A stretch of DNA of 64,000 bases, from the NCBI RefSeq assembly GCF_022846255.1, contig NZ_AP025682.1, one strand, 5' to 3'. Below, piece after piece: positions 20,835 to 61,097 of the stretch. This DNA comes from Escherichia coli. Its GTDB lineage: Bacteria; Pseudomonadota; Gammaproteobacteria; Enterobacterales; Enterobacteriaceae. The translations under genes were made by a program, and so were the position numbers. Position 1 is the stretch's first letter. Every line of letters starts with the position of its first letter. Below the pieces are notes generated by a model. It had not been told where the DNA came from. It did no database searches and was given only the letters and a program-made list of their open reading frames with translations.

Positions 20835-20972
20835 TGTCATTGCTATACCATAGCTTGGAGAGGATTATTGGAATGGTAGAAGAGTCATTATGAGATAATA
20901 TTATTATCTGAGCTGGCCCCCTGAAATACCAGACAGTAGATGTATCTTAAAATAAGAGATAGGCTTGGATAT

Positions 20973-21368
20973 ATGTCTAACACTAGTTCTAATTTTGAGA
21001 TGGCTGGCGTTTTGTTAGGAAAAGAGGTGCGTAAACGTAAAACACCTCAGGAAAAAATCGCAATTATTCAACAGACTATGGAGCCGGGCATGATGGTGTC
21101 CCACGTGGCGCGTTTGCATGGAATTCAGCCCAGTCTGTTGTTTAAGTGGAAGAAACAATACCAGGAAGGAAGCCTCACTGCTGTGGCTGCCGGTGAAGAC
21201 GTTGTTCCTGCTTCTGAACTGACCGCTGCAATAAAGCAGATTAATCAGCTTCAGCGTTTACTGGGTAAGAAAACCATGGAAGTTGAGATCCTCAAAGAAG
21301 CGGTGGAGTATGCACAATCGCGAAAATGGATAGCGCATGTGCCCTTGTTACCTTCGGACAAGGAATAG
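20973..21368 (+). CDS. IS2-group transposase OrfA
   Basis: HTH OrfA homolog of IS2 InsC ([24 protein letters not shown]...). Confidence 0.75.
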
Positions 21369-22207
21369 CCCCGGTAAGCCGTGTTCTGGGCGTGTCACGT
21401 GCGCAGTTAACATTACGGATGAAGGCATCTGATAACAAGCCAGATAAACGGCGCCAGAGGCGCGATGAGGCTGCGGATGCAGAAGTCTTATCGCGCATCC
21501 TGGATATCATTGGCGATATGCCAGCATACGGGTATCGCCGTGTCTGGGCGATACTCAGGCGGCAGTCCCGAAATGAAGGACTACCGTTCGTGAATGCAAA
21601 GCGTGTTTACCGGATAATGAGCGAAAATAGTCTGTTGTTGTTACATGACAAACCATCACGACGGCAGCGGGAACATAAAGGCCGAATATCGGTGAAGGAA
21701 AGCGACCAGCGTTGGTGTTCCGATGGCTTTGAGTTCGGTTGCGATGATGGCGAAAAACTGCGTGTTACGTTCGTCCTGGACTGTTGCGATCGTGAAGCCA
21801 TAGACTGGGTCGCAAGCACGGGAGGTTACGATAAAGCGACAGTGCAGGATGTGATGTTAGGAGCGATAGAAAAACGCTTTGGCGATAAAGTACCGGAACA
21901 GTCCATCCAGTGGCTGACAGATAACGGTTCAGCGTACAGAGCGCATGAAACACGGCAGTTCGCCAGAGAGCTGAATCTGAAGCCCTGCACAACAGCAATC
22001 AGTAGCCCTCAGAGTAATGGAATGGCAGAACGGTTCGTGAAAACGATGAAGGAAGACTACATCGCGTTCATGCCGAAACCGAATGTAAGAACGGCATTGC
22101 ATAACCTTGCAGTGGCGATCGAGCATTACAATGAAAACCATCCGCATAGTGCGTTGGGTTATCGCTCTCCGCGAGAATATCGACGTCAGCGGGTAATGTT
22201 AACTTAA
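21326..22207 (+). CDS. IS2-group transposase OrfB (DDE catalytic)
   Basis: 293-aa ORF homologous to IS2 InsD; overlaps orfA in the -1 frame. Confidence 0.75.
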
Positions 22208-22311: not shown

Positions 22312-23397
22312 ATGTCCATTCTTCGTCCGAACGAAAATCTTGCAGCAGCTCTCAGCGATGATTCAGAGTTCAGCAATAGCATGCAGTTCAGGTTAATCCT
22401 GGCAAAGACTGTTGATGCAGGAGCCCCGGTTCCAGCGGATCTGGCTCTGACGTGGGTGACAAACCATATTGAATACTCATTACGAACCCCCGCCCGCCGC
22501 TGTGCGAAAGAATTTGCTGCACTATTTAAACGGCGTTACACCCTTAAATACGGTGAAGGGATGGTAGTGAAGCCGAATAAAGCGCGTCTGCGTTTAGATT
22601 ACACGCCTGCAAGTCCCAGTTTGAGAGGTATTCGGCTTCCTGTTCCTGACTTGCCTGATCCAAGTGCATTGAAAGGCCCTGTTCAGAAGCTTATGACTCT
22701 TGCTGATATATGCACAGATGAACTGGATGCTTACAGTCGTTACCTTGGTAGAAAAGGCACTTCAGCAAATGATACCGCTGCAATTTTGTTGCTGCCTTCA
22801 GAAATCGTTAACGAAAGCGCAGATAAATTATTAAGTGCATTCAAACGCTGGGCTGATGACGCGATCCTCAGTAAGGGGGGAGTAGTTTCAGTTGCTGACT
22901 TCTGGTCACACATGAATGCTACCTGTCCGGCAAAGATCAACAAAAAAGAGGCCGACTTGATGCAGGCCTTTGCACAGAAAATGGGGTACTGCCTGGCTCC
23001 TGACCCCTATTACCACCACGTAAAAGCAAATGTCGATGGTGTTCTTGTTTTATTCCCTGCTGGTGAAAGTGGCCGCTTCTCTCCTTCTCCTGAATTTATC
23101 ACAGCTGTATTGACGCTCCGATTAGGTTCGGTAGTCGCCTTGATTGACAATTCTTTCGATCAAGCCGAACAGAAAGTGCTTGAGAATGCCATCAACAACA
23201 ATGTCAGCTTCAGCGATGATGAAAAGCGCTCTCTGCACGCATATTTAACGTGGCAGCTTCATACCCCGGCGAATATGACGGGAATGAAAAGCCGGATTGA
23301 ATTACTCGGTGCAGCGGAAAAATCAGCTGTGGGTAAGGTTATCGTTAGTGTCGCTTGCTCTGACGGCAGAATTACGCCTGCCGAAATCAAACTGTAG
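22312..23397 (+). pseudogene. TerB-domain protein gene remnant, 3'-truncated by the IS911-like element
   Basis: 361-aa ORF; C-terminal TerB-like repeats (VALIDNSFDQAEQKVL; VSVACSDGRITPAEI); TAG stop 23395-23397 overlaps the IS left end; frame stays open upstream into the preceding IS, so the 5' end may also be lost. Confidence 0.5.
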
Positions 23398-23464
23398 TGG
23401 CACACTGAATTTGGCCACCTGAACAGAGGTGATATGCTCACCTCAGAACAACACAGGTGCTCCA

Positions 23465-24633
<1,169 letters not shown>

Positions 24634-25056
24634 CCACTACAAATATCATTATATTGGAATAATTATAAAACTGAACAAAATGGTCAATGTAATCTGGTTA
24701 ATTTATAAATATTTACATTGCGTGATGATATTTAATTCCAGTGTTAAGTAATGTCACATGCCTATTATTGGTTACTACTTTGTAGGTGTTTTGGTTCGGC
24801 GTTAATATCATTGGTCATAATCACCTGTGAAAGTTTATTCTTGAAATGTTATAGGTATATTACTTGCAATTAAAAATGAGAAATTTATTATTATTGTGTT
24901 TTGCAAATATAATAATTAAAAATTTATTATAAATTATGATTAGAACTGACAATATAAAAGAATAATAAAACTCAATATGAAAATAATTATCATCTGGTAT
25001 GATACTTTTGCTGTTGATTACAGGAATAAAGTGTCAGAATAATATTGTTATTGGGT

Positions 25057-25084
25057 AAAAAAAGCCTCCACTATATGTGGAGGC
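25057..25084 (-). terminator. hairpin GCCTCCAC-TATAT-GTGGAGGC with flanking A/T run (terminator-like, minus strand)
   Basis: Perfect 8-bp stem, 5-nt loop; AAAAAAA on plus strand gives a U-run after the stem on the minus strand; ~700 bp downstream of int. Confidence 0.45.
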
Positions 25085-25758
25085 AAACCCTTAGATAGTT
25101 CTATTGAGGCAAGTATGTTATAAATCTGCCTTATCTTTTATAGCATATAAAGATATGTATGCTATATTGTTTTTTGAAGAAATTTTTCCAGAAATTACAG
25201 TAATACAAGAAATATTAACCGGTGTGATTTTTGGATGTTTAATAAGTACAGTGTAGTGTACTTATATTTTTGTAATAAAGATGAACGCGTCCTTTAGATA
25301 AACTGAAAAATATTAAGCATGTCTCATGTGGTTTTCTGAATCAAAACTCTTTTCAGTCTTTGGTTTTTTGTTAAAAACAGGTTTATTGCAAGGGTGTTGT
25401 TGTGAAATGTGTTTTGGTGTCGTTGTGATTTTATGGTGATAATGTGAATTTTTATCCTTTCAAGATGGCTCCCTGGACGTTAAATACAGTGGAAATTTAT
25501 ATTAAGATATAAATATAACTATTGCGTTATTTAAATTATTGTCTATTACAGCTCCAGTTAATAGAGCCTGAAGTAATTTCTTAGTATTTCATCATAAGCG
25601 TTTATCTATCGTCTCTTTCTAAATTAACCGGTCGTATTACAAGGTGCTGAATCTGATTAAGGAATGATACTTAGGGGATTATGGCTGACTTAATAATTAG
25701 ATAACTGATAAATGACTATCAGGGGGATATCGTTAAGTCAGCCTTTAAAATCAAGCGA

Positions 25759-26949
25759 TTATATAGCTGGTGACTCTTTTCGAAGAGCATCAAGGTAGTC
25801 AGCGTACCATTGCATCATTTCTCGTCTTCCTTCAAGGTAACGAGCATGGTTGTATGTACCACGAATGCTGTTTTTGTCCGTATGTGCAAGTTGCATTTCA
25901 ATCCATGCACTATTGAATCCTTGCTCGTGTAGAACAGTACTCATTGTATGACGAAATCCATGCCCGGTAGCTTTTTTGTCATAGCCAATCTTCTTCAAAA
26001 CCATATTGACGCTTGCATCGCTGATAGGCCTGTTAACATCATTTCTTCCGGCAAAGATGTATCTGTATCTTCCAGTCAGTTCTTTGAGGATTTGCAGAGA
26101 CTGGATTGCCTGATCTGACAGAGGGACGATATGCTCCTTCCTCATTTTCATCCGGGTCGGAGGAACTTCCCATATCTTTTGGGTAAAATCGATCTCACAC
26201 CATTCCCCCATACGTAATTCTACTGTTCTCAGCCCTGTGAGCATCAACAATTTTGTAGCTTCACGGGTTACAATACTGCCGGTGTAGTTTTCGAGTTTGT
26301 ATAAAAACTCTGGTAGTTCAGGAGGAAGCAGGAAAGGGTAATGTGTTCGCTTATAGCTTTTCATTGCTATAACCAGATCAGAAGCTGGATTGTATCGTGC
26401 CCGACCTGTAACAATGGCATACCGAAACACTTCACCACATCGTTGGCGAACTTTATTAGCTAGCTCGCAGGCTCCTCGGCTTTCGATACGCTGAAGAACT
26501 GCGAGAAGTTCAAGAGGTTCGATTTCACTAATGGGTCTGTTTCCAATGTAGGGAAACACATTATTTTTGAATGCTCTGTCGACATAATCAGCGTAGCTGG
26601 CAGACCAGCCTGAAACTTTTGCGTTGTACCACTCGGTGGCGATTGCGGCAAAAGTTCTTCCTTCGGAAAGGTTTTTCTCAAGATTTTCAGCTTTCTTGAC
26701 TTCACCGGGATCTTTACCATCGGCATGTATTTTCTTGGCTTCATCCCGACGTTTGCGAGCTTCAGCCAATGTAATAGTTGGATAGGTGCCAAATGATAGT
26801 TTCTTTTCCTTCCCCGCATAGTGGTACTTCATTCGCCAGTACTTTGAGCCGTTAGGATTGACCTGAAGGTAGAGCCCACCACCATCGGCAATCTTATAAA
26901 TTTTATCTTTGGGTTTGGCTGTTTCAACTTGTCGAGCTGTCAGTGGCAT
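25759..26949 (-). CDS. int: P4-type tyrosine integrase (internal copy)
   Basis: ORF 25759-26976; likely start ATG 26949 (MPLTARQVETAKPKDK...) with SD GAGG; P4-family N-terminal pattern and C-terminal catalytic R...HxxR...Y region. Confidence 0.85.
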   Translation of the reverse strand: MPLTARQVETAKPKDKIYKIADGGGLYLQVNPNGSKYWRMKYHYAGKEKKLSFGTYPTITLAEARKRRDEAKKIHADGKDPGEVKKAENLEKNLSEGRTFAAIATEWYNAKVSGWSASYADYVDRAFKNNVFPYIGNRPISEIEPLELLAVLQRIESRGACELANKVRQRCGEVFRYAIVTGRARYNPASDLVIAMKSYKRTHYPFLLPPELPEFLYKLENYTGSIVTREATKLLMLTGLRTVELRMGEWCEIDFTQKIWEVPPTRMKMRKEHIVPLSDQAIQSLQILKELTGRYRYIFAGRNDVNRPISDASVNMVLKKIGYDKKATGHGFRHTMSTVLHEQGFNSAWIEMQLAHTDKNSIRGTYNHARYLEGRREMMQWYADYLDALRKESPAI

Positions 26950-27076
26950 CTGGGGGCCTCGCAATAGATTGACCAAGATGTGCCCCTAAATAGGCCCCCA
27001 AATGTGACTTGATTTACGTTCCCCTGAGGAGAATTAAGGCGACTATTTGAGTAACATAAGTAAGGGTATGTGCTGA

Positions 27077-27640
27077 TTATAAAGGCTTTTTGTGGGGTAT
27101 GGTAGATTTCAGGAGAGGTGTGCATGGTGTCCCCTGCAGAATGATGTAAACACCTGCTGCGAAGGTAATAGATTGCATGATGGAGAACATGAACCAGTTT
27201 TTACCACCACTAAGCTCTTTCACCACATCTGCACGCGCAAACAGGCACGTCACCAGGAAAATTATGCTCATGGTAAAAGAGATAGCAACCGGCGTGTCGC
27301 GCAAGAACAGCAGACTTTTCGGCACATTCATGTCTTCAGTCGAGTGGTCTTTATTACCAAACTTGCTGCCGATGAAACCGGCCAATACATAATATAATGT
27401 TGAGAAGTGGCCGATGGCAACGTCATCAGAACCGGTCACTTTCTTCATGTACGGATGCGCAATAGCCGGGAAAAAGACCATTGCCACGCCAACAACCAAA
27501 GAGCCAACGGCTATAAGCGTAATGCCGGTCATGCCTGCTGTTGCCAGAATTACCGCTACCATCATCGACATAAACAACGTGTGATGACCGGTCAGGAAGA
27601 TAAATTTCCACGGTGTGAAACGGGCAATCAGAATGTTGAT
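27077..27640 (-). pseudogene. PTS EIIC internal fragment (ascorbate/galactitol-superfamily permease; possibly sgc-derived)
   Basis: Membrane ORF fragment resembling the UlaA/SgaT-type EIIC core; no native N- or C-terminus; abuts the rpe-like fragment in opposite orientation. Confidence 0.5.
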
Positions 27641-59561: not shown

Positions 59562-60824
59562 TTATTTTAATGGATTATTAATCTTTGCATATTCAAATGG
59601 ACTGATAAATCTTTCTCTATTTGCATCCAGAAAATCGGCCCACCATTGTAGCATCAGTCGACGTTCTTCCAGATGTTCTGCTTTATGAATGTAAGCAGCA
59701 CGTACACCATTACGCTCCTGATGGCTCATCTGACGTTCCACAGCATCGCGGGACCACAAACCTGATTCAATCAATGCACTGCACGCCATCGCCCGGAATC
59801 CATGGCCACAGACTTCCTGGGTTGTGTCATATCCCATAACCCTCAGGGCTTTATTTACGGTATTTTCGCTGATTGGTTTACGTGGGTCATGTGCCCCCGT
59901 AAAGATCAGACCATTTTCACCAGCCCATGTCTGAAGTTCTGTCAGTATGGCTACAGCCTGTTTGCTGAGTGGCACAAGATGTGGTGTTCGCATCTTGGAG
60001 CCTCGGTGTGAGAATTTTACGCCTGGCAGAGGTTCGCGTTCGGCTGGAATAGTCCACATGGCATTGTCAATATCAATTTCAGACCAGCGGGCATATCTGA
60101 GTTCACTGGAACGAATAAAAACCAGTAAATTCAGCATAACTGCCCGTCGGGTGACAGGCTGGCCTTTATAACCGCCAATACGCGACAGAAGTTCAGGCAG
60201 ACGTGAAAGATCCAGAGCTGGGCGATGCTGGCGTTTTACCGTAGTCAATGCACCAGCCATATCCAGAGCCGGGTTATATCTGATGATGCCAGACTGTACG
60301 GCATAACGCATTACAGCAGATATTCTTTGCTGCAGACGACTGGCGATTTCATAAATTTGTTTAGCTTCTGCAGCACGAACAGGGATAAGCAGGTCCGGGG
60401 TACTGAGTGTTGTGATATCCCGGTTGCCGATAAAGGGGAATACGTGTGTCTCGAGGCTTTTGAGTACTTTATCGCTGTGTGATTGTGCCCATTGTTTATT
60501 ACTGGCATGCCAGCGTCGTGCAATATGTTCAAAAGAGAGCTGTAAATCAGGGACTACTTTTTTAGCTCTTTTCTGTTCGCAAGGGTCAATCCCCTCCGAA
60601 ATCAGTTTTCGGGCCTCATCCCGTTTTGTACGAGCTTCGGAGAGAGAAACTTCTGGATACACACCAAGTGCCAGAGTCTTCTCCTTACCCAGAATACGAT
60701 AACGGAGACGCCAGTAACGGGAACCATTAGGATGAACCAGCAGGAACATGCCGGCCCCGTCAGTGAGTTTATAAGCCTTGTCAGTGGGCTTTGCAGCCCG
60801 GATTTTTGCGTCAGTCAGCGCCAT
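59562..60824 (-). CDS. int: P4-type tyrosine integrase adjacent to tRNA-Phe
   Basis: 420-aa ORF; SD AAGG; P4-family N-terminus (MALTDAKIRAAKPTDKAYKLTDGAGMFLLVHPNGSRYWRLRY) and C-terminal catalytic region; tRNA upstream on the same strand. Confidence 0.9.
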   Translation of the reverse strand: MALTDAKIRAAKPTDKAYKLTDGAGMFLLVHPNGSRYWRLRYRILGKEKTLALGVYPEVSLSEARTKRDEARKLISEGIDPCEQKRAKKVVPDLQLSFEHIARRWHASNKQWAQSHSDKVLKSLETHVFPFIGNRDITTLSTPDLLIPVRAAEAKQIYEIASRLQQRISAVMRYAVQSGIIRYNPALDMAGALTTVKRQHRPALDLSRLPELLSRIGGYKGQPVTRRAVMLNLLVFIRSSELRYARWSEIDIDNAMWTIPAEREPLPGVKFSHRGSKMRTPHLVPLSKQAVAILTELQTWAGENGLIFTGAHDPRKPISENTVNKALRVMGYDTTQEVCGHGFRAMACSALIESGLWSRDAVERQMSHQERNGVRAAYIHKAEHLEERRLMLQWWADFLDANRERFISPFEYAKINNPLK

Positions 60825-61021: not shown

Positions 61022-61097
61022 TGGTGCCCGGACTCGGAATCGAACCAAGGACACGGGGATTTTCAATCCCCTGCTCTACCGACTGAGCTATCCGGGC
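61022..61097 (-). tRNA. pheV: tRNA-Phe (anticodon GAA)
   Basis: Reverse complement reads GCCCGGATAGCTCAGTCGGTAGAGCAGGGGATTGAAAATCCCCGTGTCCTTGGTTCGATTCCGAGTCCGGGCACCA, the E. coli tRNA-Phe sequence incl. CCA; pheV copy inferred from flanking yqgA-speC. Confidence 0.95.

Follow-up and report, generated by a model that had tools for sequence, protein, structure and literature searches.

What is a 1.1-kb stretch of strongly AT-rich, gene-free DNA beside an integrase gene, and does selection act on any part of it? The question is raised by positions 24642-25758 of a stretch of Escherichia coli DNA of 64,000 nucleotides (nt) (NCBI RefSeq assembly GCF_022846255.1, contig NZ_AP025682.1), here called the window, whose numbering is used throughout. 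An earlier note, made from the letters alone, had described the region as an AT-rich spacer without open reading frames (ORFs), and this description holds: its G+C content is 28.3% against 44.9% for the window, the lowest among the window's 1.1-kb tiles, and it contains no ORF of at least 60 amino acids (aa), the longest inside it measuring 50 aa. A mechanical 75-aa ORF with a TTG start (24524-24751) does cross the left edge, from the transposase gene but out of its frame. The same note did not recognize the region as intergenic DNA from upstream of a papB-like gene, cut short by an insertion sequence (IS). On balance, and with modest confidence, we favor a reading in which this IS-truncated island spacer carries a candidate minus-strand small RNA (sRNA) together with an insulating terminator.

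Origin of the spacer

The region and its immediate borders are made up as follows.

24642-25758 (no strand assigned): what is left (1117 of ~1270 bp) of the non-coding DNA that separates the integrase gene (int) from the papB-like gene in an argW-type island; 239 E. coli chromosomes match it collinearly at 97-99%
23393-24641 (plus strand): IS3-family insertion sequence truncating the spacer, with orfA at 23429-23767, orfB at 23794-24633, and ends TGTAGTGG...CCACTACA
25759-26976 (minus strand): intact P4-type tyrosine integrase with an Arm-DNA-bind_3 domain, 405 aa from a TTG start
27125-27139 (minus strand): last 15 nt of tRNA-Arg (argW), which form the attachment (att) core TGGTGTCCCCTGCAG and the end of island homology

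A module with 99.5% identity to window positions 24642 to ~27140 is present in 241 of 5426 complete E. coli genomes, always on the chromosome, and nothing is annotated under the spacer in the 239 collinear chromosomes. In these carriers the integrase adjoins tRNA-Arg (argW), between yfdC and variable cargo, and the integrase genes of such argW islands share 99.5% DNA identity with that of the window. The intact island reads argW, P4-type int, ~1.27 kb of gene-free DNA, a papB-like gene, an araC-like gene and a convergent SPATE autotransporter gene, the three cargo proteins being a PapB-family regulator (PF03333) of 76 aa, an AraC-family regulator of 282 aa and a SPATE autotransporter (Peptidase_S6) of 1311-1313 aa. 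Read along the window's minus strand, on which both genes lie, the spacer thus follows int and precedes the papB-like gene. Intact copies were compared from E. coli (loci L003 and L086-L095), Citrobacter freundii (L109), a metagenome bin (L115) and Salmonella enterica (L104-L108), and the island, found at the same argW site, is ~99% identical between E. coli and C. freundii over the segment from int to papB and shows 76-90% identity with S. enterica. Eco_23-2667 is among the strains that carry it intact. Carriers include enterohemorrhagic E. coli (EHEC) of serotypes O26:H11 and O111 and avian pathogenic E. coli (APEC) O78, and amount to ~4% of complete E. coli genomes, plus Salmonella.

Island homology begins exactly at 24642, the outer end of the IS3-family element, which has taken the place of the ~155 bp at the regulator end of the spacer and of the entire cargo; this junction of IS and spacer occurs in none of the 5426 complete E. 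coli genomes. These comparisons show the region, as judged by homology, to be the IS-truncated remainder of the ~1.27-kb non-coding spacer of one integrative-island family. As it stands in the window, it is largely ordinary, a mobile-element scar in foreign AT-rich DNA.

Searches beyond the complete genomes returned the same island. The exact terminator described below was found in metagenome contigs only as more copies of the same E. coli-type island, two conserved 18-20-mers retrieved only further E. coli-type copies from viral contigs, and the plasmid collection yielded one E. coli record, which at 1.4 Mb is evidently of chromosomal type. A protein search with the papB-like regulator retrieved nothing beyond truncated copies and the lineages of E. 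coli and Salmonella. Literature searches with sequence strings or for a SPATE island at argW or tRNA-Arg found nothing specific, and databases name the island genes generically. The argW locus is a variable integration hot spot that holds the argW-dsdCXA island and CPS-53/KpLE1 (review PMC7545054, citing Moritz and Welch 2006). The present module fits that pattern in normally adjoining argW between yfdC and variable cargo and in keeping, in the window copy, the 15-nt argW att core. It differs in its cargo, which is papB-like, araC-like and SPATE rather than the IpuA, IpuB and DsdA listed for CFT073 (PMC7545054), and in the position of the window copy, which is not at argW but inside an island associated with tRNA-Phe, fused to a truncated gene of the phosphotransferase system (PTS IIC).

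Other copies of the module have changed in other ways. In the O26:H11 strain 11368 (L001, 9112-10302), annotation marks this integrase as a pseudogene interrupted by an internal stop, and a different IS3-family element has cut the papB-like gene down to 51 aa; the conserved unit introduced below maps there to NC_013361.1 at ~3,306,774-3,306,936, on the plus strand of that record. Set against the intact integrase of the window, these changes indicate that the module decays independently in different lineages and that the spacer is kept.

The earlier note had proposed a comparison with the flanks of other P4-type integrases, and this gave a clear negative. None of 80 loci that encode integrase relatives at 40-73% aa identity, drawn from many genera, was similar to the spacer (blastn, word size 7); 71 of them carried enough downstream DNA for a look at the flank. 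A profile of the conserved unit (nhmmer) likewise matched neither the 80 integrase loci nor loci with 50-54% identical homologues of the AraC-like regulator. The 71 related integrases are followed by the next ORF of at least 60 aa after a median of 114 bp; only one of the flanks is free of ORFs for at least 1 kb, and only one has a G+C content below 32%. Because the relatives' flanks show neither similarity nor a comparable ORF-free AT-rich stretch, the spacer is, by this comparison, part of this island's cargo and not a feature of the P4-type integrase family.

Conservation within the spacer

Divergence between E. coli-type and Salmonella-type islands is strikingly uneven. Identity is 90.7% over int and the first ~125 bp of its 3' flank and 84% over the papB-like gene and its upstream 250 bp, and inside the spacer only two blocks align, 25058-25217 (80%) and 24658-24737 (79%), the latter being the start of the continuous homology upstream of papB. 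The stretch 25045-25246 is 77% identical overall, and within it 25057-25141 reaches 88-90%, above the neighboring regulator genes; a global alignment gives 85-92% for 25060-25140 and 85% for 25177-25216. The rest of the spacer stands at ~40-50% identity (~45%), effectively random for its composition, and is unalignable.

Polymorphism among 18 distinct E. coli-type haplotypes gives the following numbers of variable sites per 100 bp, the value for the int coding sequence being taken from a 14-sequence alignment.

24642-24737: 2.1
24738-25044: 10.1
25045-25141: 3.1
25142-25246: 8.6
25247-25633: 8.8
25634-25758: 2.4
int coding sequence (14-sequence alignment): 1.7

The three low-polymorphism segments, which the Salmonella comparison had defined independently, hold 8 of the 82 variable sites in 318 of the 1117 bp (binomial P = 3.5e-5). 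The metagenome copy L115, which is 95.5% identical overall, has 2 substitutions in the 202-bp stretch 25045-25246 versus 36 in 694 bp of variable spacer, and its variable parts also carry a 55-bp deletion (25514-25568). These data show that two parts of the spacer, 24738-25044 and 25247-25633, together about 700 bp, evolve at or above the neutral rate and tolerate a 55-bp deletion, and that three segments are constrained: a hairpin at 25683-25743, a unit at 25045-25246 and the distal papB-like promoter region at 24642-24737. Three independent comparisons (Salmonella-type islands, the 18 E. coli-type haplotypes and L115) support such constraint.

A conserved non-coding unit ending in a terminator

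The unit inside the spacer has the following parts.

25045-25246 (minus strand): conserved non-coding unit, candidate sRNA or 3' RNA module, with a possible promoter region at its 5' side
25057-25084 (minus strand): intrinsic (Rho-independent) terminator GCCUCCAC-AUAUA-GUGGAGGC followed by U7, with an 8-bp stem of which 6 pairs are GC, and a 5-nt loop
25107-25132 (minus strand): penultimate hairpin (A/G)AGGCAG...CUUGCCU(C) with the conserved loop AUUUAUAACAUA, 6-7 pairs in E. coli-type copies
25139-25166 (minus strand): 9-bp hairpin UAUAGCAUA/UAUGCUAUA, in E. coli-type copies only
25212-25217 (minus strand): conserved TAATAT hexamer, a possible -10 element seen in the alignment, with a weak -35 element TAAACA at 18 bp

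The earlier note had reported a strong hairpin with A/T runs on its flanks, and the hairpin itself is present (GCCTCCAC-TATAT-GTGGAGGC, 25064-25084), with an A/T run on one flank only, the A7 at 25057-25063 that precedes it on the plus strand. Read on the minus strand, this arrangement shows the anatomy expected of an intrinsic terminator. Between 24500 and 25900 there are 2 terminator-like sites against 0.7 expected from shuffles, and in the Salmonella spacer the homologous terminator is the only such site. E. coli-type and Salmonella copies share all 16 bases of the stem and differ at 2 of the 5 loop positions; the U-run, found on the minus strand only, measures 7 nt in the window, 8 in most E. 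coli copies and 6 in Salmonella, and directly 3' of it conservation collapses.

Upstream of the terminator, the penultimate hairpin forms a perfect 8-bp stem in L115 and is weakened in Salmonella, and a single-stranded stretch lies alongside it ahead of the terminator. From its loop through its 3' arm runs a 20-nt sequence, UAUAACAUACUUGCCUCAAU, that is identical in E. coli-type and Salmonella copies and one base short in L115. The conserved 5' block of the unit reads TAATATTTCTT...TTACTGTAATTTCTG. Minimum free energy z-scores of the 3' module range from -2.3 to -6.0 across three lineages. Only two stem changes are seen among E. coli-type copies. The single substitution in the terminator stem, C to U in the Citrobacter copy L109, gives a U.G pair on the minus-strand RNA, and an A to G change in the 25139-25166 hairpin of L115 keeps a G.U pair on the same strand; on the opposite strand both would be A.C mismatches. 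Since these substitutions keep their pairs on the minus strand only, an RNA of that strand is favored.

Neither strand of the unit holds a conserved ORF, and frames are not maintained against Salmonella. A 25-aa minus-strand ORF and a 50-aa plus-strand ORF are both broken there, and a small-ORF reading built on a 37-aa hydrophobic plus-strand ORF was rejected, as such frames are broken in Salmonella or lie within the most polymorphic segment. These observations also bear on the idea that one or several protein-coding genes decayed to give the spacer, with the conserved block as a coding 3' end that kept its terminator. The spacer is indeed unusually long for intergenic DNA, given how soon an ORF usually follows related integrases, yet no copy holds an ORF above 50 aa, and across three genera and dozens of genomes no annotation pipeline called one. 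The changes within the conserved block keep no frame, and both deep lineages have an ORF-free spacer of similar length (1208 versus 1267 bp), which argues for a long-standing non-coding status; we regard a decayed gene as very improbable.

A plus-strand transcript was weighed in the same way. A promoter TAGAYA-N16/17-TATGTT (~25092-25119) could drive an RNA antisense to the 3' region of int, perhaps in a type I toxin-antitoxin-like arrangement with the 50-aa ORF, which overlaps the block (25104-25256). The promoter-like site scores 9/12 at the homologous place in Salmonella and 8/12 by eye in E. coli. However, promoter-like hexamers occur in the region at chance frequency (9 versus 8.6 expected), the 50-aa ORF is frameshifted and stopped in Salmonella, the terminator's U-run works on the minus strand only and the substitutions that preserve G.U pairs favor the minus-strand RNA. 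A plus-strand origin of the signal therefore seems to us very unlikely.

A candidate small RNA and its alternatives

We propose that the unit would be transcribed on the minus strand, in the same sense as int, as an RNA of either ~150 nt from a weak promoter of its own near 25212-25247 or ~90 nt processed from a long 3' untranslated region (UTR) of int, and that in both cases the RNA would end at the terminator at 25057-25084. The product would be a small non-coding RNA in which the invariant UAUAACAUACUUGCCUCAAU could serve as a seed, and the terminator would also stop int transcription before it reaches the papB-like promoter. The suggestion in the earlier note that the spacer could be an sRNA locus is partly supported, as its hairpin forms the 3' end of 25045-25246, the one block inside the spacer that is conserved, has the form of a minus-strand intrinsic terminator with a sharp drop of conservation after the U-run, and lies in DNA with no conserved ORF. 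The Rfam scan that the note had named as a check was run twice, once with 10 kb (E up to 1) and once with the region by itself (E up to 10), and no family came near its gathering score, the best being Arrc14 at 31.3 bits (gathering 99) and STnc370 at 25.2 bits (gathering 54).

Enterobacteria are known for sRNAs encoded on islands and prophages or derived from 3' UTRs, such as InvR and the Isr RNAs of Salmonella, Esr41 of EHEC and RNAs of the CpxQ/SroC type. The unit resembles these in lying in acquired AT-rich DNA beside an integrase, in its predicted size of ~90-150 nt without an ORF, in its GC-rich terminator hairpin with a U6-8 tail, and in a conserved stretch, unstructured or exposed in a loop, ahead of the terminator, with conservation confined to the unit. 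It differs in matching no Rfam sequence or structure, and is put forward here as a candidate only, with no claim to membership of a named family. More tentatively, the unit may be an undescribed, horizontally transferred sRNA that travels with the SPATE/papB-like/araC-like island among E. coli, Citrobacter and Salmonella and was left an orphan here when the IS took the rest of the island; UAUAACAUACUUGCCUCAAU, with its anti-Shine-Dalgarno-like CCUC, could then repress translation of mRNAs of the island or of the core genome.

Several results weigh against a discrete sRNA. Consensus promoter scans found no passing site upstream of the unit in E. coli-type or Salmonella copies. Four of the nine pairs of the 25139-25166 hairpin are broken in Salmonella, so that this middle hairpin is not kept, and in E. 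coli-type copies polymorphism in the 5' half of the unit (25142-25246) reaches the level of the spacer around it, while for the 3' block alone the depletion of variable sites is marginal (P = 0.07). With only two deep lineages compared, 95.8% of cells are paired with one double-sided change; a shuffle control reached the observed value in 11 of 500 runs, and the covariation term of RNAalifold was positive. A k-mer scan of the island loci for complements of the seed returned the antisense self-match and no target complementarity. Lastly, the conservation would be accounted for just as well by a terminator next to protein-binding DNA, with no stable RNA made. Two further attempts contributed little: duplex predictions against translation-initiation regions gave long, uninformative duplexes, and a minus-strand promoter-like site at 25545-25518 was set aside as dispensable, as it lies inside the 55-bp deletion of L115.

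The last of these objections amounts to an explanation of its own, in which the unit is the terminator of the int transcript, perhaps with DNA sites for regulators of the papB-like promoter, and no stable sRNA is made. We consider this a serious, though doubtful, alternative. It agrees with the terminator being the only intrinsic one between int and the papB-like gene in both lineages, with the lack of a conserved promoter for an independent RNA, with the poor retention of the upstream hairpins in Salmonella and with small palindromes in the 5' block (TTACTGTAA, GAAAAATTTC) that could be protein sites. On the other hand, ~30 nt suffice for a terminator, yet ~50 nt upstream of the stem (25085-25131) are ~90% identical, above the 84% of the papB-like coding region, and such conservation would be unusual for a mere 3' UTR of which the other ~600 nt are unalignable.

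The orientation of the unit, upstream of the papB-like gene and in the same direction, also allows a regulated terminator within a ~700-nt leader, with transcription beginning in the 5' block and with the leader setting how much of it reads through to the papB-like and araC-like genes; a conserved terminator after alternative hairpins is the usual layout of an attenuator. This is unlikely in our view, as ~300 bp of unalignable polymorphic DNA (24738-25044) separate the terminator from the papB-proximal block, that block has its own TTGACC and perfect TATAAT, and no leader peptide or anti-terminator pairing is conserved.

The two outer constrained segments

The remaining two segments adjoin the genes on either side of the spacer.

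25683-25743 (minus strand): nested hairpin 15 nt after the integrase stop codon, without a U-run, z = -3.35
24642-24737 (minus strand): distal upstream (promoter) region of the papB-like gene, orphaned by the IS, 79% identical to Salmonella and continuous with the papB-like gene in intact islands

The hairpin behind the integrase has an 11-bp outer stem (GGCUGACUUAA/UUAAGUCAGCC) and a 7-bp inner stem (CUGAUAG..AUCAG), both carrying CUGA/UCAG. It is kept in the MS 85-1 variant of the argW island (89% identity) and in Salmonella, with one compensatory change of a C-G to a U-A pair, and was not found after the 71 more distant integrases.

The papB-proximal segment holds TTGACC (24682-24687), the perfect TATAAT (24648-24653) and a 21-nt invariant sequence (AATGTAAATATTTATAAATTA), and its promoter-like site was flagged by the consensus scan. 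In the window, this orphaned promoter region is now aimed at the right end of the IS3-family element, in antisense orientation to transposase orfB, and could drive antisense transcription of the IS.

The presence of long AT-rich non-coding DNA upstream of a PapB-family (PF03333) gene in the intact island recalls the pap-type regulatory region, the papI-papB intergenic DNA that serves Dam- and Lrp-dependent phase variation. The spacer differs in having no divergent papI-like ORF and no GATC in 1117 bp (2.7 expected), and the downstream genes of the island encode an AraC-like regulator and an autotransporter rather than a chaperone-usher operon; 24642-25758 accordingly lacks the papI and GATC features that define a pap-like Dam/Lrp phase-variation region. 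In E. coli-type islands two GATC sites stand 26 bp apart, ~60-90 bp upstream of the papB-like start codon (L087). L115 keeps one of them and Salmonella (L104) none, so that a Dam-dependent switch, if there is any, would be lineage-specific.

The earlier note had also considered nucleation by H-NS. The spacer resembles H-NS-silenced xenogeneic DNA in its composition (28% G+C, where the window has 45% and the host core ~50%) and in its place within an acquired island, upstream of virulence-type regulators. The high-affinity motif tCGATAAATT (Lang et al. 2007, PMC2094087) does not occur in the region within one mismatch, nor is there A-tract phasing at 10-11 bp; at two mismatches there are 4 sites, or 3.6 per kb compared with 1.6 per kb window-wide. 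As the G+C content is this low over 1.1 kb, coating of the AT-rich remainder by H-NS from its AT content alone is plausible; that remainder is probably spacer DNA of foreign origin.

Repeats and the recombination readings

The other motifs reported before lie in the variable parts of the spacer or at the margin of the unit.

25242-25265 (no strand assigned): inverted repeat, with arms extending to 9 bp, not conserved
25393-25455 (plus strand): three imperfect ~20-bp tandem units with TGTGAWWT, within the most polymorphic part of the spacer

The inverted repeat AAGTACA-N6-TGTACTT is where it had been reported, at 25244-25263, and so are the TGTGAWWT direct repeats (25401, 25424 and 25443, with an additional copy at 25223). 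The spacing of the inverted repeat is peculiar to the window, where a private 5-bp duplication (25256-25260) turned AAGTACA-N1-TGTACTT into the N6 version; the spacer between the arms is 1 nt in all 13 other copies of the first 14-sequence alignment. Its arms are polymorphic at 25244, 25249 and 25255, and Salmonella has no counterpart. Short inverted repeats as such are over-represented in the region (14 seen versus 2.3 expected). Three TGTGAWWT within 60 bp have a nominal P of ~2e-4 under a first-order Markov model, for a pattern that was chosen post hoc, and window-wide the motif is at chance (16 versus 16.1 expected). There are 12 variable sites in 25342-25441, around the direct repeats, copy 2 is broken in 5 of 14 copies, and the spacers of L087, L115 and Salmonella hold three scattered, two and one occurrence, respectively.

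Repeats and palindromes beside an integrase might be accessory DNA for recombination, either arm-type or accessory sites of the integrase, as the earlier note had considered, or parts of an invertible switch like fimS. The integrase does have an arm-binding domain, the repeats cluster locally, and parts of the spacer lie between long-range inverted repeats (24696-24709 and 25616-25629 are one such pair). Against arm-type sites, the direct repeats are polymorphic, lie ~1.7 kb from the att core at 27125-27139, beyond the int gene itself, and their cluster is lost in L087, L115 and Salmonella, where only 1-3 scattered copies accompany integrase genes of 90-99% DNA identity (90% in Salmonella); nothing similar stands beside the 71 related integrases. 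Against a switch, all 239 full-length E. coli copies are collinear and in one orientation. Both forms of this reading are extremely unlikely, and the arm-type claim was dropped. Most motifs picked out from the letters of the window are private to it or polymorphic, and the inverted and direct repeats are not functional elements.

The junction at the att core

At the far side of the integrase, the att core directly abuts the interior of an internally truncated PTS IIC gene (ascorbate-type), a junction found in none of the 5426 complete E. coli genomes. Homology to PTS IIC starts at ~27132 and so overlaps the att core by ~8-10 nt. This overlap suggests either integration at a secondary pseudo-att site or microhomology-mediated joining at 27125-27142. 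A second ORF of the size of a P4-type integrase (59562-60824, minus strand) adjoins tRNA-Phe (61022-61097), and the integrase at 25759-26976 is therefore internal to a larger tRNA-Phe-associated island, which also holds IS2-like and other IS3-family elements (20940-22207, 23393-24641).

Conclusions

Here, we provide a map of the constrained 30% of an unannotated 1.1-kb "desert", and this map yields one candidate, an island-borne sRNA with its terminator between an integrase and a virulence-type regulator pair. If the candidate is real, it would explain why this block is better conserved than the neighboring regulator genes, and it would be a further case in which an sRNA moves together with an autotransporter toxin island.

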